Positions 18,390-57,042 are shown, numbered from the stretch's first letter. The stretch: 64,000 nt of DNA from Candidatus Latescibacterota bacterium (GCA_963667175.2 CAXXXF010000016.1:416001-480000), one strand, 5' to 3'. The notes: generated by a model from the sequence alone, not told the origin. Numbers and translations are program-made.

Positions 18390-19103
18390 CTACCTCCACT
18401 TCCTCATCTCGAGAACCCGCAGGGTGAGCGCCAGAAACAACCAGATCATCCCCGCGAAATAGACAAGATTCCTCGAATCGATAACGCCGCGCGCAATATT
18501 CGACAGGTGGAAGTCCACACTGACGTATTGGGCGATCGTCGCCAGCCCGGCCGGTATGAAAAGCAGCAGTTTGTCCAGCAGGAAAAACACCATCACGATC
18601 GCGATCGAGATAATCAACGAAACCACCTGGTTCTCCGTCAGGCTGCTTGCAAACGTGCCAACCGCGGCATAAAACGCGCCGACGAGAACGAGTCCGATGT
18701 ATCCGGTAATGACCGCGCCGACGTCGACGTGGGTCCCCACGACAAGGAGCGTGAGAAAATGCACCAGCGTAAACAGCAGCCCCACCACGATCAGGCTCAC
18801 CGCCGCCAGGTATTTGCCCGCGACGAATTCAACGTCCTGGATGGGCATGGTGGTCAATACTTCCATGGTGCCCAGGTTCTTCTCTTTCGCGACCAGTCCC
18901 ATCGAAATGGCCGGCACGAAGAACAGGAAGACCAGCGGGACGATGTTGAAAAGGGCGCGCATATCCGACTGTCCGATAAGGAAGAACGTGCTCGTGAAAA
19001 AGTAACCGCTCAAAACCGCGAAGATCACGAGAAATATATAGGCCATGGGGCTGTTGAAATAGGAACGAAGTTCCTTGAGATAGATCGCCTTCGTATTACG
19101 CAT
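18390..19103 (-). CDS. ABC-2 type permease (GldF-like)
   Basis: KELRSYFNSPMAY, EKNLGTMEVL, GKYLA, ARGVIDSRNLVYF. Confidence 0.9.
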   Translation of the reverse strand: MRNTKAIYLKELRSYFNSPMAYIFLVIFAVLSGYFFTSTFFLIGQSDMRALFNIVPLVFLFFVPAISMGLVAKEKNLGTMEVLTTMPIQDVEFVAGKYLAAVSLIVVGLLFTLVHFLTLLVVGTHVDVGAVITGYIGLVLVGAFYAAVGTFASSLTENQVVSLIISIAIVMVFFLLDKLLLFIPAGLATIAQYVSVDFHLSNIARGVIDSRNLVYFAGMIWLFLALTLRVLEMRKWR

Positions 19104-20040
19104 CGGACGGCCCCTCCGCGGTGAGGTTTCTGAATACGTCCTCCAGTTGAACCCGGGCCTGGCTCATCTCCAGGATCACCCATCCATGGTCTCTGGCATA
19201 GTGAAAAATGCGCTCCCTGGGATCCGTGTCGCGGTCGTATTCCAGAACGAGCGTTCGAGACCCGTTGCTTTCCGCCGTGCCGGAAAGCACGACGCCCTCC
19301 AGCCGTTCCGGCAGCCGCCGCACGCTATCGTCTTCCGCCTGTCTGACCTCCAGCGTCAACTGCGTCTGTCCCCGGAAGCTGGACATCAACTCCTCCCGCA
19401 GACCGTCCGCGACGATTTCACCATTGTGAATGATGATGATGCGGTCCACCGTCGCTTCGATTTCCTGCAGGATGTGGCTGGACATGATCAGCGTCTTCTC
19501 GCGGCCGAGAGACCGGATCAGTTCCCGGATTTCCACAATCTGGTTGGGATCCAGCCCGGTCACGGGTTCGTCCAGAATCAGGATATCCGGATCGTGCAGC
19601 ATGGCCGTTGCCAAGCCGATCCGCTGTTTATACCCCTTGGAACACTCCTGCACCGCCCGGTGAACCACGCCGGCGAGACCGCACTGCTCAACAACGCGTT
19701 CCAATGCCTGCCGGAACACCCGTCCCTCCATGCGTCGGATCGTCGCAATAAAGGAAAGCAGGTCGTAGACGATCATTTCACCGTAGAGCGGATTCAGTTC
19801 CGGCAGGTACCCCACCCTCCTGCGGATCTCCAGGGAATCGTCCATGATGTTCATATCGTCCACGAATACGTCGCCGCCAGTTGCCGACAGGTAGCCGGTC
19901 ATCACCTTCAGCGTGGTTGACTTGCCGGCCCCGTTCTCGCCCAGAAATCCCAGAATTTCGCCATCGTTAACCTGGAAACTGATATCCCGAACGGCCCGGA
20001 CGTCACCGTAGTTCTTGACCAAGTTTTCCACCCGGATCAT
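19096..20040 (-). CDS. ABC transporter ATP-binding protein (GldA-like)
   Basis: GENGAGKST, CSKGYKQR, LILDEPVTGLD. Confidence 0.95.
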   Translation of the reverse strand: MIRVENLVKNYGDVRAVRDISFQVNDGEILGFLGENGAGKSTTLKVMTGYLSATGGDVFVDDMNIMDDSLEIRRRVGYLPELNPLYGEMIVYDLLSFIATIRRMEGRVFRQALERVVEQCGLAGVVHRAVQECSKGYKQRIGLATAMLHDPDILILDEPVTGLDPNQIVEIRELIRSLGREKTLIMSSHILQEIEATVDRIIIIHNGEIVADGLREELMSSFRGQTQLTLEVRQAEDDSVRRLPERLEGVVLSGTAESNGSRTLVLEYDRDTDPRERIFHYARDHGWVILEMSQARVQLEDVFRNLTAEGPSDA

Positions 20041-46136: not shown

Positions 46137-46928
46137 ATGCAGATCATTGTCCGAAACGAAGACGATCTCAAGGACCGCTGGAACAGGCTTCAGAACTTTC
46201 TCTTCGACCCTGAATACTTCAAGTTTGACATGGAGTTCCCCTCCGCCGAGGAGATCGTGGACATTCTCCGAAGGGACAGTCAGGCACGAATCAACGTTCC
46301 CGGCGACCTTCCGGAGGAGGAAGAAATCGAGAAGCGTGAGGAATTCAAAACGCTGCCCATCGCCGACGTCATCGACCGCCCCTTCTCGCTGGCCCACTTT
46401 CACCTTCAGAGCTTCTACGGCGAAGGTCAGTTCCTGCGGGACTTCCAGAAGAAGGTGATGATTCCGTGGCGCACCTTTCTGGCGTCGAGCGGATTCACCT
46501 GGCAACGGTGTTATCCCATTATTTTCATTTCCGGGAGGCATTGCAGTTCTTCCTACCACATGGACACGTCGCACGTCGTTGCCTGGCAGGTCTGGGGGGT
46601 AAAATACTTCAATGCATTCAAAGATCCCTACAAATATGCGCCCCTGGATGACGCCGTCAACAACCGCGAGTCACTCAGAGGGCCAGACGGGCCGCCGGAA
46701 CACGATCCCGGCGACGTTCTTAGCTATAAAATGGAAAAGGGCGACCTGCTCTGGAATCAGTTGCTCACCCCCCACTGGGTTCCCGCGGGGGACAGCGTTG
46801 CCGTTAGCGTCAACATTTCGCACGGCGGCATCGCTTTTGGCGGGCAGTTCAGCCCCAACGAAACGGCCCTGAGAAAACGCTGGGAAGCCCATCCAAGGGA
46901 AGCGTGGCTCGTGGATACCCGCTACTGA
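46137..46928 (+). CDS. Cupin/JmjC-like Fe(II) oxygenase
   Basis: SSYHMDTSH...WQVWGVKYF...GDLLW...PHWV (HxD...H triad); GGAGG RBS. Confidence 0.7.
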   Translation: MQIIVRNEDDLKDRWNRLQNFLFDPEYFKFDMEFPSAEEIVDILRRDSQARINVPGDLPEEEEIEKREEFKTLPIADVIDRPFSLAHFHLQSFYGEGQFLRDFQKKVMIPWRTFLASSGFTWQRCYPIIFISGRHCSSSYHMDTSHVVAWQVWGVKYFNAFKDPYKYAPLDDAVNNRESLRGPDGPPEHDPGDVLSYKMEKGDLLWNQLLTPHWVPAGDSVAVSVNISHGGIAFGGQFSPNETALRKRWEAHPREAWLVDTRY

Positions 46929-47071
46929 CGGGGTGCGACCAAACCGGCGAGACCTGCTGCTGCCGGAATCGCCTCCAAGCCGGAAATCTCGCGCAGGCGA
47001 TTCCGGCATCGGTTCCGGGCGAAACTACAGACGTCGGCGGCGGTCACGGTCGTTTAATTCTCGAAAACCAA

Positions 47072-47902
47072 ATGGCGTACGAAAAACCAGACGCGCCTCC
47101 GGTTTCAGGATGGCAGCGGCGTCTACGGAACCTCTTTTTTGAATCGGACACGCCCACGGGACGCCGGTTCGCCCTCGTGCTCATCTCCAGCATCGTCCTG
47201 AGCGTGCTGACCGTGATGCTGGACAGCATCGACGCGGTCCGGGAGTCCCATGGCGGCCTGCTTTATGGACTCGAATGGTTCTTTACAGTCCTATTCACAC
47301 TCGAGTATTTCATGCGGCTGATCTGCGTTGGCCGCACGTTGCGTTATGCGTCTTCGTTCTTCGGCGTCGTGGACCTGCTTGCAATCATCCCCACGTACAT
47401 CAGTCTGCTCCTGCCGGGCAGCCAATATCTGGTGGTCATCCGCGTCCTCCGCGTACTGCGCGTTTTTCGCGTCCTTAAACTGGTGCAGTACATGGACGCG
47501 GCCCGAATGATGGCCCGCGCAGTCCACTCGAGTTACAGGAAGGTTGCCGTTTTTGCGGTTACGGTGATGACGGCAGTCGTTATCCTCGGCTCCCTGATGT
47601 ACATCATTGAAACACCTGAGAACGGCTTTACCAGCATACCCCGGAGCATCTATTGGGCCATCGTGACCCTCACGACCGTCGGATACGGTGATATTTCCCC
47701 GAAAACCGCACCCGGCCAAATCCTTGCGACCGTTGTCATGTTGCTGGGCTTCAGCATAATCGCAGTGCCCTCCGGAATCCTGTCGGTCGAAATCTTCCAG
47801 GCCTCGAAAGGCCGGTCCGCCGCACGGTACTGCCCGGGATGTAACGCCGAGACCCGTGAGGCCGATGCGAACTATTGTCGATATTGCGGCACGAGATTAT
47901 AG
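47072..47902 (+). CDS. Voltage-gated potassium channel (6TM ion transporter) with C-terminal Zn-ribbon
   Basis: S4 IRVLRVLRVFRVLKL, selectivity filter TTVGYGD, CPGC...CRYC. Confidence 0.93.
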   Translation: MAYEKPDAPPVSGWQRRLRNLFFESDTPTGRRFALVLISSIVLSVLTVMLDSIDAVRESHGGLLYGLEWFFTVLFTLEYFMRLICVGRTLRYASSFFGVVDLLAIIPTYISLLLPGSQYLVVIRVLRVLRVFRVLKLVQYMDAARMMARAVHSSYRKVAVFAVTVMTAVVILGSLMYIIETPENGFTSIPRSIYWAIVTLTTVGYGDISPKTAPGQILATVVMLLGFSIIAVPSGILSVEIFQASKGRSAARYCPGCNAETREADANYCRYCGTRL

Positions 47903-48875
47903 GCTGCTGACCGTGCTCGTCGTCGCGGGGATGGCGGCCGTCCTTTATCTCCCGGCATCCGGGACGCCGGAACAGCGGGCGGCGGACCTGTGCGCCGGCG
48001 CCGAAACCGCGCAAAGACACGGAGACGACGAATCGGCGATTGCGACCTACCGGGAAGCCGTCGGCATTCACTCTGAATCCGTTTGTGCACGCCTGGGCCT
48101 TGCAGGCCTTCTGACTGAAAGGCGAAGATTCTCCGAAGCAATGGAAACTCTGCAGGCGGTATCACCCGCCCTGTTGCGTCCCGGGGAGTGGATGGAATAT
48201 GCGCGCGCCCTTAGAGACGCACGGGCTGACAGCGAGGCCGAGTCTGCATATCTTACGGCCTCCGCAAGAATGCCGGAGGATCCAGGTCCCGCCCTGGAGT
48301 TGGCCGAATTTTACCTCTCTGCGGGAAGACTCGACAGCGCAGAATCCCGGTTCCGGCGCGCAAGGTCTCTGGACGGCGATCCCGGCGCGATTCACGCCGG
48401 CATGGGGCGCACGTTCGTCAGTCGCGGCGAACTCGACTCGGCTGCTGTCCGCTTCCGGCTTGCGCTTCAGGAAGACCCGGCAGACGTCGAATTGCTCTGC
48501 GACACCGCCCGGAACGAGCTCCAGCGAAAGCGGCCGGGCGCCGGCTTGCGCTATCTCCGCGGCGCCGTCGCACTGGACCCGTATCTGCCTCGCGCACGGT
48601 ACCTGCTGGGACGGACGCTGCTCGCACTCGGGCATGAAGAGGAAGCCCGGGCTCAACTGGACGTCTTCGACCGCCAGAACAGGCTGGCCCTTCGCATACG
48701 CGTACTGAAACATCGCGTTGCCGAGAACCCGACGGCGGAAGACTATCAGGCGCTGTCTCACCTTTACAGTCTGACGGGACGGGACAGCCTGGCGTCGTCG
48801 TGCCTTCAGCGGGCCACCGCGCTGAATCCGCTGGCAACCGCGCCTCACGAGGCCCAGGGCGCCGTCCGCTTCTGA
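47865..48875 (+). CDS. Membrane-anchored TPR protein
   Basis: N-terminal TM helix and multiple TPR-like repeats; start uncertain. Confidence 0.8.
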   Translation: MRTIVDIAARDYRLLTVLVVAGMAAVLYLPASGTPEQRAADLCAGAETAQRHGDDESAIATYREAVGIHSESVCARLGLAGLLTERRRFSEAMETLQAVSPALLRPGEWMEYARALRDARADSEAESAYLTASARMPEDPGPALELAEFYLSAGRLDSAESRFRRARSLDGDPGAIHAGMGRTFVSRGELDSAAVRFRLALQEDPADVELLCDTARNELQRKRPGAGLRYLRGAVALDPYLPRARYLLGRTLLALGHEEEARAQLDVFDRQNRLALRIRVLKHRVAENPTAEDYQALSHLYSLTGRDSLASSCLQRATALNPLATAPHEAQGAVRF

Positions 48876-48973
48876 CCTCGTCGTTTCACGAAAATGCGTC
48901 CCTCGGGTCGGCGCCTTCTTCCCCACGCCGGACGTCGGGCAACCCGAACCGCGTTCGAGAAAACGCCCATCTC

Positions 48974-50983
48974 ATGTCAATGCCATCGCCGAAATCGAGG
49001 GATTCCCGGGTGGAGACCACCTCCGGATCGGACGCAGTGAAAAATCGCGGCGTGACCGTGAGGGCCATTGTCTACGGGCTCCTGCTTTCCGTGGCCATCG
49101 GAATTCTGGGCGACACGGTGCGTTATGTCCTGCACGCGTCGTTCATGGCGTACAGCCATATGCCCATGGGCAACCTGATCCTCACGCTGGTCTCGATCAT
49201 CCTCTGCTCGCTGCTGGCCTACAGGTTCGGCCGGCGGTTTGTCTTCTCCTCATCGGAATGGATCACCATCTTCTGCATGGGGTTCATCAGCTCTCTGGGG
49301 CCTACCTACGGGATCAGCGGTTACCTCGTGGGTATCATGGTGGCGCCGCACTATTTCGTGACCCAGGAGAACGAGTGGGTAAGGTACCTGCATCCCTATC
49401 TTCCCGGATGGCTGATACCGGAAAACGACGGCAATGCAATGGCCTGGTTCTACGAGGGCCTTCCACAGGGCGCATCCATACCCTGGGGCGTCTGGGCCGT
49501 GCCTCTCTTCTGGTGGTTCACGTTTCTCTGCGCGGTCGCCCTGGCCGTAGCCTGCCTGTCCATCATCTTCCGCAAGCAGTGGTCCGAGTACGAACGGCTC
49601 GTCTTTCCGGCGATGGAACCCATCATAGAATTCACAACACAGGCGGGAACGGGAAAACGCCGGTTGCCGGAATTCATGAAGGGTAAGGCGTTCTGGGCCG
49701 GATTTATGCTCACCACGTTTGTTTTCGGCTGGAACATGATTGCATGGTTCTATCCCCAGTTTCCCCGGTTTCCCACGGCTTCCGCCCGGTGGGTCTTTTT
49801 TTCGCGTGACTATCCGCCCGGCTTTTTCTTTTTGAGTGCCGTTGTCATCTGTTTTTCTTACTTCGCCAGCCTCGAGATTCTCTTCAGCCTCTGGTTTTTC
49901 GACGTCCTATTCATTCTTGAGGGCGGCATCCTCAATGAACTCGGCATATCGGCGATTTCGCCCTACTACGGCAGAGGTCGATATATCTGGCAAACGGCCG
50001 GAGGGTTCACGGCCTTCGCCCTCTGGGGGATCTGGGTCGCGAGACACCACCTGCGGGACGTCTTCGCGAAAGCGCTGAATCCGAACCGGTCCGCCCCGGA
50101 CGACAGCACTGAGTTGCTCTCGTGCCGGCACGCCGTGCTGGGGCTTGTTGTCGGATGTCTATACATGGCGCTCTGGCTGGCATGGATCGGGATGCAGGCA
50201 AAGGTGATTGTCCTCCTCATCCTTTGTATGCTCATCGTCTACACCACCGTTTCAAAAATGCTGGCGGACTCAGGCATCATCTACCTGAACCCACCCACGT
50301 CCGCATGGGGTCTTGTCAGCAGATTTCTGGGCGGTTCACACACCTATACCGCGTCGACCAAAATGGCGTTGAGCCTCTCCTCGCGGGCCGTAAACCACTA
50401 TCGAGGCCTGTCCATGGGAACGATGGCCCATATCAACCGCCTCGCGGAGTTTCTTCCCACCGGAAAACGTCGGCTGTTCGGGGCGGTCTGCGGGGCGTTC
50501 GTGGTGGGGATGGTTACGTCGACGCTTTATACCGTGTGGCTCGGCTATACCATGGGCGGGTACAATATACAGCCCAACTGGCTGATCATCCACGCGGGCA
50601 TCCGGCAGGTAACCGGCATTGCCAATTCAATCAAGGCCGTCGACAGCCCGATTGAGCCGGTCAACTACTGGTTCTTTCTGGCCGGGGCCGCCGTCATGGC
50701 AATTCTCAATCTGATGAGGTATCGATTCGTCTGGTGGCCGCTGCATCCCATCGGGTTTGCGCTGTCCGGCACCGCGCTTTCGAGGCTGACCAGCGCGACC
50801 ATATTCGTGGCCTGGCTGGTCAAACTGACCATGCTCAAGCTCGCGGGCGCCGCCTTTTACCGTAAGTCCAGACCCTTCTTCATCGGGATGCTGGTGGGTT
50901 ATATTCTCTCTGTCGCCTCCGGCGTTGTCGTTGACGCCATCTGGTTCCAGCCGGATGGCCACGTGGTACACAAGTGGTATTAA
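48974..50983 (+). CDS. Polytopic membrane protein, DUF6785/DUF6784-like (putative transporter)
   Basis: Many TM segments; IPWGVWAVPL, RKQWSEYERLVFP, WWPLHPIGF, RPFFIG. Confidence 0.78.
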   Translation: MSMPSPKSRDSRVETTSGSDAVKNRGVTVRAIVYGLLLSVAIGILGDTVRYVLHASFMAYSHMPMGNLILTLVSIILCSLLAYRFGRRFVFSSSEWITIFCMGFISSLGPTYGISGYLVGIMVAPHYFVTQENEWVRYLHPYLPGWLIPENDGNAMAWFYEGLPQGASIPWGVWAVPLFWWFTFLCAVALAVACLSIIFRKQWSEYERLVFPAMEPIIEFTTQAGTGKRRLPEFMKGKAFWAGFMLTTFVFGWNMIAWFYPQFPRFPTASARWVFFSRDYPPGFFFLSAVVICFSYFASLEILFSLWFFDVLFILEGGILNELGISAISPYYGRGRYIWQTAGGFTAFALWGIWVARHHLRDVFAKALNPNRSAPDDSTELLSCRHAVLGLVVGCLYMALWLAWIGMQAKVIVLLILCMLIVYTTVSKMLADSGIIYLNPPTSAWGLVSRFLGGSHTYTASTKMALSLSSRAVNHYRGLSMGTMAHINRLAEFLPTGKRRLFGAVCGAFVVGMVTSTLYTVWLGYTMGGYNIQPNWLIIHAGIRQVTGIANSIKAVDSPIEPVNYWFFLAGAAVMAILNLMRYRFVWWPLHPIGFALSGTALSRLTSATIFVAWLVKLTMLKLAGAAFYRKSRPFFIGMLVGYILSVASGVVVDAIWFQPDGHVVHKWY

Positions 50984-51115
50984 ACCGGACGAAGGCTTCG
51001 TGTGTCGTTATTCGGCGATCGGCATCCCTGAGGCGGCACGCTGCCGTGAGCCGGAAGTTCCAAAACGTCGAACTGACCTTGTGCCCGAAATCTTTCGCCT
51101 GATGCAGGTGTCTTC

Positions 51116-54100
51116 GTGAAAACCAACAACGTCGCGCTTGGTCTGTGCATCCTGATCGCCTTTCTACTGTTGACCCTGGTCTCACCGCAGGCGATCACCG
51201 ACCGCCTGTTCCAATGGTTCGATATTCGCTATCCGGAACCTCCGCCCGCCAGGGTGGCCACCGGGCAGCAGGAACTGGCCGATACCATCACAGACTGGAT
51301 AACGCCCGCCGAAGTCGAGTCGCGTCTGCGCCGACTGGCCGAATCGGGTTCGCGGGTGGTCGGCTATCCGGGCCACGGCGCCGCGTCCCGATACATCCAG
51401 GCAGAATTCGAGCGCATGGGTCTGGAGAACGTCTCCATCGAATCCTACGACGTCACGTCTCCCGTGGACAAGGGCGGCGGACTGCGCATCATCGGCGAGC
51501 CCGGCGTGATACCGATTCATGCGGTCTGGCCCAACCTTGTGCGCACGTCCACGCTGCCGCGCGCGGGACTGCGAGCTCCGCTGATTGACGGGGGCGGCGG
51601 AGAATTCGCGGATTTCAACGGCAAGGAGCCCGGCGGCAGCGTCGCGCTGCTGGACTTCAACTCCTGGAACCGCTGGATGAACGCCTCCATGCTGGGCGCC
51701 CGGGCGATTGTATTCGTTGCGCCGGATTCCACCACAACCGCCGAAGCCGAGCAGAAGTTCTTCCAGGTTCCGCTCAACGCGCCGCGGTTCTGGATCGGCA
51801 GGTCCGACGGGGAACGCCTCCGGAGACGCCTGGCCGCCGGCGAGCGGATCGACGTGGAACTGAAGGCGCGAATGGACTGGGAAAGGCACTCCGCAGACAA
51901 TATTATCGGCTGGATACCGGGTACGGACCCGCAGCTTCGGGAACGCGTGGTACTGATCGACGCCTATTACGACGCGATGTCCGTTGTGCCCGCGCTCGCC
52001 CCCGGCGCCGAGCAGGCGTCCGGCATCGTGGGCCTTCTGGAAATGGCCGAATACTTCAAGGCGCATCCGCCCGCCCACACCATCCTCTTTCTGGCAACGT
52101 CGGCGCACCATCTCGGTTTTCGCGGCGTCTGTGACTTTCTGGGCAGACACGCCAGAAAAGAGGAACACTTCGCCGAACTGATGACGGACCCCATCGATAT
52201 CCGGCTCTGGATCTCGCTGGATCTCACCTCGCAGACCGACCAGATGGCGGTCTGGAACGGCTCCACCGCGTTCTATTTCCAGCGTTTCTTCACGCCACTG
52301 GGCAAACGTTTCAGCGGCCATGGCGCGGACCTGGCGCCGGCATTCGGCATGGACGCAAAGAGGTCGCTTGTCGACGGCATCAACCCTCCTTCGGGCATGA
52401 GTTGGCGAATGTTCATCCCGGGCGGCAATCTGAAGACCGACTCGCAGGTGGTGCTCACCGCGGGAATGCCGACCCTGGCTTTCGTGACCATCAACGACGC
52501 GCGATTCAGGGTGGATACACCCTACGACACGGTAGACCACGTCAATCTCACCCATCTGACGAATCAGATCAGGCTGCTTACGGCGGTGCTCAGCAAAGCG
52601 CTGAATGAACCCGATTTCCTGCCCGACTATCGCGTCAAGATGAAGGACAGGATGCGAGCCCTGAAGGGGCGCCTGCTTACGTTTCCGAGGCGCAGCATCA
52701 CCCCGGACCGGCCGCGCAAAGGCGCGGTGGCGGTACTGCGAATGTCTTCCGAAAAAACCGTCAAGGGGGTACGCGCCATATTCTACGACCAGGCCGACGA
52801 GAACGGCGAGTTCTACGTTCCCGGTCTCGCGGTGCGCCGGGTCGGCCTGGACGCCTATTACCTCGACCCGGAGAGCGGTGAAATCACCTATGCGGCGGAT
52901 CGGGGTCAGGCAGCGCGGATCTACAAGCCCGAATTCGGCATGGACTGGTGGATTACACGCGCCACCCGCATCATGTTTCCCTGTGTGTCGACCGACTTCT
53001 ACGAAACCGTAGATCCGCGATATCTCACCAAGCTCCCGAGCCTCTCCCTGTACGGCGACGGAAACACCGCCCCCCGGGAATACGGATATACCCTGGGTTA
53101 CGGACCCAACGAACCGGTCGGCGTGGTCTTCACGCCCCCGGGCGTCAAGCTCAAGATCACGATGCAGACGAAGGGTATCGGCATCCGCTACATGCTGCTG
53201 AATGCCACCGATACGACCAGCGTGGAAGCCGCGCGCAAGAGCGGATTCGTGGCCGCCACCCACGGCGCGATCACCCACACGGCCTATCAGGCCGCCAAAG
53301 ACATGTGGGTCCTCGACCACGCCAGGATGCGCGAGCTCAACGACTACGGAATCGAAAACGACCGGCTTTCCGATCTGCACAACCGGGCGGGGGTGCATCT
53401 GGCGCGCGCGGACTCGGCCCGGCAGCAATTGCGATGGGACGACTTCATCAGACATTCGCGCGCTGCGCTCGGCCTTGAATCGCGCGCCTATCCGGACGTG
53501 AAGGGGACGCAGAACGACGTGATCCGGGGCATCATCTTTTTCATGGCGCTGGTTCTGCCCTGCGCCTTTTTCGGCGAACGGCTGATTTTTACCGCGGTGG
53601 ACATCCGTTGGCAGATCGTGGGTTTCGCCGGTATATTCGTGGTTATCTGGGTCTTTCTGTCCATCGTTCATCCCGCATTCGACCTTTCGAATCCTTTCGT
53701 CATCCTCCTGGCATTTGTGCTCCTGGCACTGGCCAGCTTCGTGATCAGCCTGGTTTTCTCCCGGTTCAACAGTCAGATGCGCAGCCTGCGCACCGAGGCA
53801 GCCGTTATCCACGACGTGGACGTGGGACGAATTTCCGCATCGCTGGCGGCCTTCCAACTGGGCATCGCCAATATGAAGCGGCGCAAGCTCAGAACGGCGC
53901 TCACCTTTAGCACGCTCGTCCTGCTTACCTTCACCGTGTTGTCTTTCTCTTCGATCAAGTCCCAGCTCAGGTTTCACCAGATTTCACGGGACAATCTGGG
54001 CCCGTATCCTGGAATGCTCATCCGGAGCAAGTATTGGGCGCCCCTCGAGGAATCGGTACTGGACTATGTAAACGCCAACTTCGGCCGGGAAGCCGTAGTG

Positions 54101-55651
54101 GCGGCGCGCAGCTGGTACGCCTCCAAGGAAAAAAAGGCCATCCAGGTCGTTTCGGACAGCGCGTCGGCCAACGCACTCGGCATTGTGGGGCTGACCGCAC
54201 AGGAAACCGGCGTGATCGGGATTCAGGACTGTCTGTCTGTCGGTCGGTGGTTCCTCCCGGGCGAGCGGAACGTCGCCATACTGCCCCAGGCAATGGCCGA
54301 CCTCCTAAAGATCGGAGAGTCCGATATCGGACAGGCCGAGGTCCGGCTCTTCGGAGAGCGATTCAAGGTGGTGGGTCTGATCGACGCCGAGCGCATGAAG
54401 GATCTCGAAGACCTCGACGGAGAGCCCCTGACGCCCGCGGATTTCGTTCTGACCGATGAAAACGTGTTCATGCAGATGGCTCAACAGGAGAAACGCGAGA
54501 AAGCCGGCCTGGAAGAGACCGACGTCGAGATCATGGAATTCGAACACCTCGACCCGGCCAACGTCATGGTGGTGCCCTACCAGGCGCTAAGGGAAGTCAA
54601 CAGCCCGCTGCAGGCCATCGCCGTGAGGTTCCGGGACCCAACGGTGGTCAGGCAGCGGGTGGAAAGCTTTATCTCGCGGCTCTCCGTCGTCCTCTTTGCG
54701 GGGGTCCCGGAGGTCTCGCCCGAGGGAAAGATCGGACGTATTGCCGTTTCCGTCTACTCCTCTTTCGGACAGGCCTCGGCGCAAGGCCTGAGCAACCTGT
54801 TTATTCCCATTGCGATCGCCGCCCTGATCGTGTTGAACACGATGATGGGGTCGGTTTACGAACGATTCCGAGAAATCGGCATCTATTCCTCGGTCGGCCT
54901 GGCGCCCGTGCACATCGCCTTCCTGTTCCTGGCGGAGTCCTGCGTTTACGCCGTGCTTGGCGCGGTTTCGGGTTATCTGCTTGCGCAGGGTGTTTCAAAA
55001 ATCGTGCTCTGGCAGGGGCTTCTGCAGGGCATCACCGTGAATTACTCCTCCATCTCCGCCATGGCCTCCTCCACGCTCGTGATGCTCGTGGTGATCCTTT
55101 CCACCATCTATCCCGCCCGCCGGGCTTCGCAGATGGCGGTTCCGGATATCACCCGACGCTGGAGACTGCCGGAGCCGGATGCGGACCGCTGGGATTTTGA
55201 GTTCCCGTTCACCATATCCGGCAACGAAGTCGTGGGTCTGTTTACGTTTCTCACCAGGTATTTCGACTTTCATACGGAAAGCTCGATGGGCACGTTCTTC
55301 ACGCACGGGGCCAACCTGTCCGCGTACGACACGAACCGGGGCCGCGGGTACCGGATCGATACGACCATCTGGCTCGCGCCCTTCGATCTCGGGGTCAGCC
55401 AGACCATCCGCCTGACGTCCACGCCCACGGGCGCCTTCGGCATCCACGCCCTCGAGATTACCATTGACAGGCTGTCGGGCGACCTGGCCTCGTGGAAACG
55501 ATGCAACCAGCGCTTTATGAACCAGATCCGAAAACAGTTCCTCATCTGGCGCACGATCCCGGAAGAAAGCCAGCGTCAATATGGAAACGAGGGTAACGAA
55601 CTGATCCAGGAGTCCGCAGCCCGCCTGGCGTCTGCCGGGGAGAACGCCTGA
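51116..55651 (+). CDS. 1511-aa peptidase-M28-like/PA domain plus FtsX/MacB-type permease fusion
   Basis: SRVVGYPGH, NIIGWIPG, IDAYYD, PGAEQASG; NMKRRKLRTALT; VLNTMMGSVYERFREIGIYSSVGL; IYPARRAS. Confidence 0.8.
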   Translation: MKTNNVALGLCILIAFLLLTLVSPQAITDRLFQWFDIRYPEPPPARVATGQQELADTITDWITPAEVESRLRRLAESGSRVVGYPGHGAASRYIQAEFERMGLENVSIESYDVTSPVDKGGGLRIIGEPGVIPIHAVWPNLVRTSTLPRAGLRAPLIDGGGGEFADFNGKEPGGSVALLDFNSWNRWMNASMLGARAIVFVAPDSTTTAEAEQKFFQVPLNAPRFWIGRSDGERLRRRLAAGERIDVELKARMDWERHSADNIIGWIPGTDPQLRERVVLIDAYYDAMSVVPALAPGAEQASGIVGLLEMAEYFKAHPPAHTILFLATSAHHLGFRGVCDFLGRHARKEEHFAELMTDPIDIRLWISLDLTSQTDQMAVWNGSTAFYFQRFFTPLGKRFSGHGADLAPAFGMDAKRSLVDGINPPSGMSWRMFIPGGNLKTDSQVVLTAGMPTLAFVTINDARFRVDTPYDTVDHVNLTHLTNQIRLLTAVLSKALNEPDFLPDYRVKMKDRMRALKGRLLTFPRRSITPDRPRKGAVAVLRMSSEKTVKGVRAIFYDQADENGEFYVPGLAVRRVGLDAYYLDPESGEITYAADRGQAARIYKPEFGMDWWITRATRIMFPCVSTDFYETVDPRYLTKLPSLSLYGDGNTAPREYGYTLGYGPNEPVGVVFTPPGVKLKITMQTKGIGIRYMLLNATDTTSVEAARKSGFVAATHGAITHTAYQAAKDMWVLDHARMRELNDYGIENDRLSDLHNRAGVHLARADSARQQLRWDDFIRHSRAALGLESRAYPDVKGTQNDVIRGIIFFMALVLPCAFFGERLIFTAVDIRWQIVGFAGIFVVIWVFLSIVHPAFDLSNPFVILLAFVLLALASFVISLVFSRFNSQMRSLRTEAAVIHDVDVGRISASLAAFQLGIANMKRRKLRTALTFSTLVLLTFTVLSFSSIKSQLRFHQISRDNLGPYPGMLIRSKYWAPLEESVLDYVNANFGREAVVAARSWYASKEKKAIQVVSDSASANALGIVGLTAQETGVIGIQDCLSVGRWFLPGERNVAILPQAMADLLKIGESDIGQAEVRLFGERFKVVGLIDAERMKDLEDLDGEPLTPADFVLTDENVFMQMAQQEKREKAGLEETDVEIMEFEHLDPANVMVVPYQALREVNSPLQAIAVRFRDPTVVRQRVESFISRLSVVLFAGVPEVSPEGKIGRIAVSVYSSFGQASAQGLSNLFIPIAIAALIVLNTMMGSVYERFREIGIYSSVGLAPVHIAFLFLAESCVYAVLGAVSGYLLAQGVSKIVLWQGLLQGITVNYSSISAMASSTLVMLVVILSTIYPARRASQMAVPDITRRWRLPEPDADRWDFEFPFTISGNEVVGLFTFLTRYFDFHTESSMGTFFTHGANLSAYDTNRGRGYRIDTTIWLAPFDLGVSQTIRLTSTPTGAFGIHALEITIDRLSGDLASWKRCNQRFMNQIRKQFLIWRTIPEESQRQYGNEGNELIQESAARLASAGENA

Positions 55652-55743: not shown

Positions 55744-57042
55744 GTGCCTCTCGGCAGACACATTCTGGTTGAACTGTACGGGTCTCCCCCATCCGTACTG
55801 GATGACGTCATCCGCATCGAAGCGTGCATGGTTCGCGCGGCCCACGCGGCGAACGCGACCGTCATCAACACCGCCTTCCACCATTTCTCTCCCTATGGCG
55901 TCTCGGGCGTTGTTGTGATCCACGAGAGCCACCTGTCCATCCACACGTGGCCCGAACATGGATTCGCCGCCGTCGATCTGTTCACCTGCGGCAATACGAT
56001 CGATCCGTGGAAGGCGTACGAAGCGTTGAAGTCGGACATGGAAGCCACGCGGGGCACAACCCGTGAAATTGACCGCGGACAACCCGACGCTCCGGTTCAG
56101 TGCGGCGCCGCGCCCGCGCAAATGGAGTCAAACGCGCCTCGTGCGCACGTCCGCAATCTCTGGTTTACCAGGAGAGAAGAACAGATTGCGCTCTCGCTGC
56201 GGCACGCCGGCGTGCTTTTCCAGCGCCAGTCGACCTACCAGAGAGTTGAAGTCCTCGAAAGCTACGGGTACGGAAAGGTCCTGGTGATCGACGGGGCGAT
56301 CGCGTGCACCGAACACGATGAGCACATCTATCATGAGATGATCGCCCACGTACCCATGCAGACCCGCCCCGACGCCCGGCGAGCCCTGGTCATCGGAGGC
56401 GGCGACGGCGGGGCCGCTCGGGAATTGCTGCGATACGAGCAGATCGAGCAGGTTGTCGCGGTTGAACTCGACGCCGCGGTTGTCGAGGCCTGCAGGCAGC
56501 ATTTCCCTGCCCTCGCGCCGGCTTTCGACGATCCAAGGCTCTCGCTGCATATTGTGGACGGCCTTACCTATATTCAATCCTGCCCTGCCGAATCCTTCGA
56601 CGTCGTGATTGTGGACGTGGCCGACCCCTCAGGCGGGTCCCGACGACTCTTTACCGAGCCCTTTTACCTGCGCGTTCGCGAAAGTCTCTGTCCCGACGGG
56701 GTCATGGTGGCTCAGACCGAACCACCCGCGCTCAACGGCCGCGCGTTCGCGGAATTAACCCTGCGTCACAAGTCGGTCTTCGGCCGCGCAAACGTACACT
56801 GCTATCTCGCCTGCATTCCCACGTATGCGACCGGACTGCTCAGCTTTTCCTATGCCGAAAAGCAATGCGCGGGCCCGCTGAAAACGCTCGACCCGCTGAG
56901 GGCCCGCCAATTCTCGGAAACACACGGGCTCAAGTACTACAACGAAGAGATACACGCGGCCGCCTTTGCCCTTCCCACGTATATCAGACGTCTTCTTCGA
57001 GACGATGCGCCAACGCCCGTGGGTCCCGCGCGCCGCTGGTGA
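55744..57042 (+). CDS. S-adenosylmethionine decarboxylase-spermidine synthase fusion (SpeD-SpeE)
   Basis: N-terminus [34 protein letters not shown]; C-terminus [35 protein letters not shown]. Confidence 0.92.

Follow-up and report, generated by a model that had tools for sequence, protein, structure and literature searches.

How is an FtsX-type permease energised when no ATPase gene lies beside it, and what would such a permease do next to a membrane carrier? These questions are raised by a locus in a stretch of 64,000 nucleotides from Candidatus Latescibacterota bacterium (GCA_963667175.2, CAXXXF010000016.1:416001-480000; referred to below as the window), in which the gene of a DUF6785/DUF6784 membrane protein (the carrier) is followed by the gene of a 1511-residue protein (the giant) with an FtsX module of the type VII ATP-binding cassette (ABC) class. 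The type VII ABC systems known so far export or extract molecules, or activate enzymes in the periplasm. A previous reading of the DNA alone (the sequence-only reading) had proposed that these two genes and an upstream gene of a tetratricopeptide repeat (TPR) protein form an import and processing module without an ATPase, in which the giant hands its substrate to the carrier. In the present study, we found that giant and carrier stay linked in distant branches of the family and are fused in one protein, that the carrier has the fold of the OPT/Yellow Stripe transporters, that the peptidase-like head of the giant has lost its catalytic residues, that a distant branch has an ATPase-giant-carrier operon, and that the genome holds an orphan ATPase of a related clade. 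We consider the chance about even that carrier and giant form one membrane machine, composed of an OPT-fold importer and a type VII mechanotransducer with a non-catalytic head, with the ATPase supplied in trans.

All three open reading frames (ORFs) were confirmed as collinear on the + strand, and near-identical DNA was present in sponge metagenomes. A scan for promoters and terminators gave no clear operon boundaries. The start of the carrier gene is most likely the ATG at 48974, which gives 669 residues and agrees with the start taken in the sequence-only reading. The genes and the parts of the giant, with positions in the window, are as follows.

47865..48875, + strand: TPR protein gene, counted from its ATG (ORF from 47856); 336 residues, with TPR_19 and one N-terminal transmembrane (TM) helix at residues 14-32.
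48974..50983, + strand: carrier gene, DUF6785 and DUF6784 (ORF from 48800); 669 residues, assigned by Pfam and by an OPT/Yellow-Stripe-like fold.
51116..55651, + strand: giant gene; 1511 residues, with a signal-anchor, a PA/M28-like ectodomain, three extra TM helices, a MacB/FtsX module and a cytoplasmic tail.
51347..52612, + strand: PA/M28-like periplasmic head of the giant, residues 78-499, with a remodelled metal site (Y285, E299, H331/H332 and D467).
53519..53755, + strand: three extra TM helices of the giant, residues 802-880, between the head and the FtsX module; supported by hydropathy, model helices and family conservation.
53900..55135, + strand: MacB/FtsX-type module of the giant, with TM1 at residues 929-947, a periplasmic core at 951-1225 and TM2-4 at 1229-1340; assigned by Pfam FtsX, Foldseek and VIA-align.
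54857..54913, + strand: cytoplasmic coupling segment of the giant after TM2, residues 1248-1266, YERFREIGIYSSVGLAP; the lowest entropy of the C-terminal half.
55136..55648, + strand: conserved cytoplasmic tail of the giant, residues 1341-1511; a family-specific alpha/beta domain.

The partnership of giant and carrier was examined in the neighbourhoods of giant homologues. A contig scan of genomes found 428 relatives, and 79 loci were kept. Of the 16 loci of orthologues with at least 70% identity to the window giant (own-type), 15 have the DUF6785 gene immediately upstream and in the same orientation; the remaining locus has just 356 nt of upstream DNA. For the distant branch, a metagenome scan was seeded with representatives that are about 37% identical and returned 80 loci; there the DUF6785 gene is found directly downstream of the giant in 58 of the 62 assessable loci. 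Because the order is carrier-giant here and giant-carrier in a branch of about 37% identity, the adjacency has outlived a change of gene order. In addition, a search with the C-terminal half of the giant gave 1269 representative clusters at E ≤ 1e-30, and among the 12 long representatives examined of 150 listed, one (P0014, 2120 residues) combines giant, DUF6785 and DUF6784 in a single chain. No fusion was seen in the metagenome loci, where none of the 69 DUF6785-bearing frames contains the tail motif; apparent overlaps of giant and carrier there were rejected as merely overlapping stop-to-stop frames. In the tight linkage of giant and carrier, seen as synteny in two distant branches and as one fusion, the sequence-only reading is upheld. 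The pairing is widespread and, as far as our searches reach, unpublished: literature searches under DUF6785, DUF6784 or the combination of FtsX, M28 and OPT found no work that already characterised it.

The genome contains four giant paralogues; the closest, on contig C17, is 60% identical. The genes downstream of this C17 paralogue include one for a 542-residue protein (L014 11990-13618) that has four BMC (microcompartment shell) domains, and one for an enzyme of the DHDPS family.

The architecture read for the giant (an M28 region, extra TM helices, an FtsX module and a tail of about 170 residues) was reproduced by Pfam, by hydropathy and by a tail of 171 residues, and its assignment to the MacB/FtsX (type VII) class is supported by both sequence and fold. 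Hydropathy gave eight TM helices, at residues 6-24, at 802-828, 834-852 and 862-880 (the three extra helices, also seen as helices in the model and conserved across the family), and at 929-947, 1229-1247, 1267-1285 and 1313-1331 (the FtsX module). Pfam FtsX (PF02687) matched residues 1229-1340 (E = 1.5e-13, 51.3 bits versus a cut-off of 25.5). In the Foldseek search with the C-terminal half, MacB (5gko) was the best match (E = 3.9e-13), and LolCDE, HrtBA, YtrEF, YbbAP and BceAB were also found. With VIA-align, the C-terminal half was superimposed on MacB (5nik_J, Z 15.7) and on FtsX (8tzj_C, Z 14.9, root-mean-square deviation (rmsd) 3.8 over 184), and the periplasmic domain of MacB (3ftj) on the giant model (Z 13.1, rmsd 3.4 over 180). 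The ERxREIG signature is present as YERFREIG at residues 1248-1255, within the coupling segment, whose core is the same in all 35 sequences compared; from the structures of MacB and LolCDE, we take the ERxREIG-like segment to be the site of contact with the ATPase.

The tail behind the module is a constant part of the family. It was present in all 81 C-terminal halves that were extracted, and in the distant branch it is 26-30% identical with 17 invariant columns. Pfam and NCBIfam scans of the whole giant gave no match in the tail, a profile search of the PDB gave none, and the scores of an Atlas search (at most 0.81) were noise. Structural matches of the tail, taken from the model of the C-terminal half, are borderline and of a level common for VIA-align (Z 7.1-8.3, rmsd about 3.3 over 101-117 residues); the matched structures are presumably of the helix-grip START/Bet v1/AHSA1-like (SRPBCC) type.

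The head of the giant is related to M28 aminopeptidases, but its active site is altered. Pfam Peptidase_M28 matched residues 262-487 (E = 2.2e-10, 41 bits versus a cut-off of 21.3), and a phmmer search of the PDB with the head found YwaD (6hc6, E = 3e-9), 2ek8 (E = 4e-6) and, weakly, nicalin (7tm3, E = 0.008). In the alignment with YwaD, AHYDS is replaced by AYYDA, GAnDNGSG by GA-EQASG, AEELG by AHHLG, and HTPeD by DTPyD. At the M28 positions the giant thus has Y285 for His, E299 for Asp, H331-H332 for Glu-Glu and D467 for His; following the M28 literature, we take E299 to stand at the position of the bridging Asp and the Glu-Glu pair to include the catalytic Glu. Residues Y285, D286, E299, H331 and D467 are invariant in the four giant paralogues of the genome. 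By a crude regular expression, the canonical GAxD[ND] pattern was found in none of 114 long family representatives, AYYD[SA] in 43 and PGAEQ in 28; thus, the exact remodelled site is not family-wide. With the mapped metal ligands and the catalytic Glu exchanged for other residues, peptidase activity of the head is unlikely as judged from its sequence, and the "processing" by M28 that had been read into the locus is not upheld.

Some members of the family (representatives P0012, P0013, P0015 and P0031, 2450-3050 residues) are extended far at the N-terminus, where Big_5 Ig-like domains or LysM repeats were matched; these domain matches hint that some heads may bind glycans or cell-wall material.

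The carrier had been read as a DUF6785/DUF6784-like protein of about 670 residues, and both Pfam models were found above their cut-offs, DUF6785 (PF20581; E = 1.3e-98, 331.2 bits) being followed by DUF6784 (PF20580; E = 3.2e-21, 75.8 bits). An AlphaFold2 model made with 36 homologues had a predicted local distance difference test score (pLDDT) of 91 and a predicted TM-score (pTM) of 0.92. A comparison of this model with the OPT fold by Foldseek, which the sequence-only reading had suggested, gave barley Yellow Stripe 1 in the PDB (7wsr_A; E = 1e-8, probability 1.00, TM-scores 0.61/0.67, 685 columns, 13% identity); the next matches were unrelated, with TM-scores of about 0.1. PF03169 did not match the carrier, and in the whole genome it gave one sub-threshold match (E = 0.005), on the C17 paralogue of the carrier. 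A profile of 36 carriers gave nothing meaningful among PDB sequences (best E = 1.2). About 11% of one archaeal DUF6785/DUF6784 cluster also carries PF03169. Because the link at the sequence level is nearly invisible, we call the protein, on the strength of its model, an OPT/YSL-fold carrier and not a member of PF03169.

The claim that the system has no ATPase was correct for the locus but not for the family. A search with ABC_tran found no ABC ATPase at 42-62 kb of the window; the nearest match (19561-19989, - strand, in an ORF at 19096-20040) is about 28 kb off. In the distant branch, by contrast, an ABC ATPase gene lies directly upstream of the giant in 49 of the 50 assessable loci, in the order ATPase-giant-carrier. 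On this gene order we regard the giant family as a whole as a bona fide ABC system, in which the lack of an ATPase is local to the present locus.

A candidate for the missing subunit was found in the same genome. A solitary ABC ATPase gene is located at C17:1005-1778, with no permease gene beside it and near the giant paralogue that is 60% identical. This layout was seen in 15 of the 79 related loci, and the ATPase-adjacent paralogue was also retrieved in 12 of the 16 assemblies that hold an own-type orthologue. Five further closed genomes were examined, namely those in which all the retrieved giants were ATPase-less; four of them contain an orthologue of the orphan ATPase (82-84% identical), again with no permease beside it. 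In a quick tree of the ATPases, the orphan clade is sister to a clade that holds the 49 giant-operon ATPases and also one ATPase on contig C2 (Shimodaira-Hasegawa-like approximate likelihood-ratio test value of 91), and all other ATPases of the genome fall outside. A complex prediction for giant residues 886-1511 and the orphan ATPase gave a median score of 0.42 (runs of 0.41, 0.47 and 0.42; best of three controls, 0.00), in a range (0.60 or lower) in which the mark is reached by 18 of 157 solved complexes and by both of the passing mismatches (at any score, by 116 of 157 complexes and 2 of 215 mismatches). At least 48% of contacts were shared between the runs, with a partner pLDDT of at least 72. 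Since similar complexes have been solved, the pass may reflect likeness or memory only, and we take the prediction as weak support for a contact between giant and ATPase.

Several observations weigh against an ATPase that acts in trans on the giant. No ATPase was found within 10 kb of the giant in any of the 16 own-type loci. In the four closed genomes with the orthologue, no giant lies within 10 kb of it, and a fifth closed genome (G005) has no close orthologue, its best match being 59% identical. The conserved neighbour of the orphan ATPase is a divergent TIM-barrel gene. Because the orthologue lies away from giants and has the TIM-barrel gene as its conserved neighbour, the adjacency of ATPase and giant on C17 may be inherited synteny. 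A tRNA-Phe (GAA) gene on the opposite strand (L014 2118-2193, -) lies between the orphan ATPase and the carrier gene, and was found there in 6 of 7 relatives checked (L079, L073, L038, L058, L065 and L035 being named with it); thus, the ATPase is not co-transcribed with the carrier-giant pair. In the tree, the orphan clade is not nested among the giant-operon ATPases, and these are nearer to the C2 ATPase, although a small FtsX protein is the partner of the latter. The model of the C-terminal half of the giant (residues 786-1511), from which the fold matches of the module were obtained, has low global confidence (pLDDT 71.9, pTM 0.44). Finally, compared with two relatives, the orphan ATPase gene of the assembly contains one extra base, a frameshift, at Walker A. 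The extra base is absent from contigs of three sponge metagenome runs (one study, depth 3-5); therefore, the frameshift is likely to be an assembly error.

At C2 (L017 6451-9687) and at L126 9397-10892, a protein of 233-234 residues with an FtsX domain and almost no periplasmic domain is followed by an ATPase that is 63.5% identical to the orphan, and the C2 pair of this genome comes after an S41 (Ctp-type) peptidase gene. Besides its paralogues, the C2 FtsX protein is the only other match of the giant in the genome. As for C17, a simple ATPase-carrier-giant operon was considered for this contig and rejected on account of the opposite-strand tRNA-Phe and the divergent TIM-barrel gene.

If the giant needed no ATPase, it could be a passive periplasmic receptor or scaffold of the carrier, and transport would be driven by the ion gradient of the carrier alone. 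Such a reading would fit the ATPase-less own-type loci and the 47 of 82 scored giant copies that lack a nearby ATPase, and also the position of the orphan ATPase, which is behind an opposite-strand tRNA and not always near a giant. The weak match of the head to nicalin points the same way; nicastrin and nicalin are inactive M28-like ectodomains in membrane complexes. The conserved cytoplasmic tail would offer a docking place for partners. However, the coupling segment is the most conserved region in giants of both kinds, with a relative entropy of 0.16 in 28 ATPase-less giants and 0.17 in nine ATPase-adjacent ones. The distant branch has both the ATPase (49 of 50 loci) and the tail, which argues against the tail as a substitute for the ATPase, and a clade-matching ATPase without a permease persists in the genomes. 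We therefore consider an ATPase-independent giant unlikely.

The direction of transport was judged from the other carriers of the genome (5.5 Mb), in which 24 PF20581 matches correspond to 17 full-length genes and about three split ones, or about 20 carriers in total. The split genes appear to be divided into two or three frames (C2:33656-35148, C2:36735-38166 and C17:55006-56518). Around the other carrier copies, 98 of 126 called ORFs were scanned. The neighbours of stand-alone and split carriers include PhyH dioxygenases, GFO/IDH/MocA oxidoreductases, aminotransferases, amidohydrolases, MR/MLE enzymes, homocysteine S-methyltransferases, a sulfatase, heparinase II/III-like proteins, TonB and a TonB-dependent receptor. 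This gene context, as annotated, is that of nutrient importers. Because about 20 copies lie amid catabolic genes, DUF6785 carriers are probably a main nutrient-uptake route of this uncultured sponge-associated lineage.

This context bears on a second possibility, in which the pair would work in export or extraction, as MacB, LolCDE and HrtBA do: the giant would expel a molecule from the periplasm or the outer leaflet, or extract it there, and the carrier would bring a peptide, a chelator or a lipid-linked compound from the cytoplasm. The solved structural relatives of the giant are all exporters, extractors or activators, with no importer among them, and the borderline helix-grip matches of the tail (Z 7.1-8.3) are to lipid-binding folds. 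The surroundings of the stand-alone carriers, with cytoplasmic catabolic enzymes, TonB and TonB-dependent receptor genes, nevertheless follow the pattern of importers, and the conserved neighbours of the pair include no genes for making a product to be exported. The OPT/YSL proteins characterised so far act in import, the trait of the family being the proton-coupled uptake of peptides or metal chelates. Export thus appears quite unlikely.

Of the 17 full-length DUF6785 genes of the genome, only 4 adjoin a giant, and 13 stand alone. In a quick carrier tree, giant-adjacent and stand-alone carriers interleave, with eight changes, at least four of which are forced by well-supported branches, and the window carrier groups with two stand-alone paralogues. 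Because most carriers of the genome have no adjoining giant, the carrier is probably an autonomous transport unit and the giant an accessory. Downstream of the fourth giant paralogue, on contig C6, there is a 684-residue protein (L016 13166-15220) with no Pfam match, 18% identical to DUF6785 carriers and on a very long branch of the carrier tree; it may be a divergent carrier.

An accessory giant could also be a regulator. It would then sense the substrate or the activity of the carrier and switch the carrier on or off, with no delivery of substrate. A comparable case is BceAB, which monitors its own transport on behalf of BceS. Partner proteins are a frequent target of type VII modules, and the fold matches of the giant include BceAB; moreover, carriers that switch at least four times between giant-adjacent and stand-alone states can function alone. 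Against a role in flux-sensing, no kinase, regulator or signalling gene is conserved in the operon, and for nothing more than sensing the head, with about 800 residues, is large. We regard this reading as improbable.

The TPR protein is a different case from the other two. It is a membrane-anchored TPR protein, as had been read (TPR_19, E = 1.3e-24; one TM helix by hydropathy), but its place in the module is doubtful, for it is linked in close relatives only and diverges faster than its neighbours. An orthologue lies upstream in loci L018-L029 with 60-78% identity (36% in L029), compared with about 74-97% for the carrier and the giant there. In L030-L033 the identity is merely 38-41%: in L030 and L033 the TPR gene (41%) precedes a tandem of two pairs (TPR, carrier, giant, carrier, giant), and in L031 and L032 the sole TPR match (38%) is downstream and not in the upstream position. 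We conclude from these comparisons that the TPR protein would be at most a lineage-specific accessory, whose membership in the module is weak. That all three genes are mere neighbours without functional connection may still apply to the TPR gene, which like the wider neighbourhood is syntenic in close relatives only, but is scarcely credible for carrier and giant, given an adjacency that survives a change of gene order at about 37% identity and the existence of a fused protein.

Two further genes flank the locus. An ORF at 46904-47902 (+) encodes an ion channel of the voltage-gated type (Ion_trans) that has a zinc ribbon at its C-terminus; the 3' end of this ORF and the start of the TPR gene share about 38 nt. 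The giant gene is directly followed by a single ORF of 432 residues at 55744-57042 (+), which joins S-adenosylmethionine decarboxylase (AdoMet_dc) to spermidine synthase domains.

We return to the reading in which carrier and giant form one machine. The DUF6785/DUF6784 protein would be a secondary carrier for the uptake of a small organic nutrient. The giant would be a type VII mechanotransducer and, as it has one FtsX module only, probably a homodimer; its PA/M28-like head would serve as a substrate receptor or gate and not as an enzyme. Cytoplasmic ATP hydrolysis would move the head, which would thereby capture, release or deliver the substrate to the adjacent carrier. The orphan C17 ATPase may be supplied in trans, and may serve all four giant paralogues. 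The fuller proposal is that an ATP-driven type VII mechanotransducer with an inactive peptidase head couples physically to an OPT-fold carrier and gates or feeds it, as an undescribed hybrid class, with one ATPase in trans for several pairs in sponge-associated Latescibacterota; this we put forward tentatively and with some doubt. A conserved partnership of a type VII module with an OPT/Yellow-Stripe-fold carrier would newly combine primary and secondary transport, and if the proposal is true, one solitary ATPase would be the shared motor for a family of uptake machines. The locus also provides a concrete case for the question of what drives FtsX-type permeases that have no ATPase gene beside them.

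Among known systems, the carrier resembles OPT/YSL proteins (PF03169, TC 2.A.67; HvYS1, PDB 7WSR and 7WST) in its whole-chain fold, but is only 13% identical and has neither a PF03169 match nor a PDB profile match; we know of no OPT/YSL protein described with an FtsX-type partner, and our literature searches likewise found none. The head of the giant is similar to the PA-domain M28 aminopeptidases (YwaD of B. subtilis, 6HC6; the Aneurinibacillus aminopeptidase, 2EK8) across the PA insert and the M28 core, but differs from them in four altered active-site motifs (His to Tyr, Asp to Glu, Glu-Glu to His-His and His to Asp). In FtsEX-EnvC and in nicastrin and nicalin, a dead peptidase-like domain is a moving or receptor part of a membrane machine. 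By analogy, the giant also has an inactive-looking peptidase domain in a membrane machine, but there this domain and the FtsX module are joined in one chain, with a transporter as the partner instead of a hydrolase or protease.

ADOP proteins (duplicated orphan FtsX permeases, TIGR03434) are likewise FtsX-type, commonly lack an adjacent ATPase gene and are numerous in this genome. Their FtsX modules number two, and they lack both an M28 head and an OPT partner, in contrast to the giant, which scored 27 bits against the TIGR03434 cut-off of 622. A cluster at C15:579000-609500 contains about ten duplicated FtsX permeases of about 590-830 residues, likely of the ADOP type, with one ABC ATPase among them.

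The closest likeness in architecture is to the type VII ABC systems (MacB, LolCDE, FtsEX, HrtBA, YtrEF, YbbAP and BceAB). The giant shares with them an FtsX module of four TM helices with a large periplasmic core between TM1 and TM2, an ERxREIG-type segment after TM2 and, in the operon of the distant branch, a MacB/LolD-like ATPase. It differs from them in its head of about 800 residues with a PA/M28-like domain and an N-terminal anchor, in its three additional TM helices and conserved cytoplasmic tail of about 170 residues, and in its obligate pairing with an OPT-fold carrier, in the lineage studied here without an ATPase in the operon.

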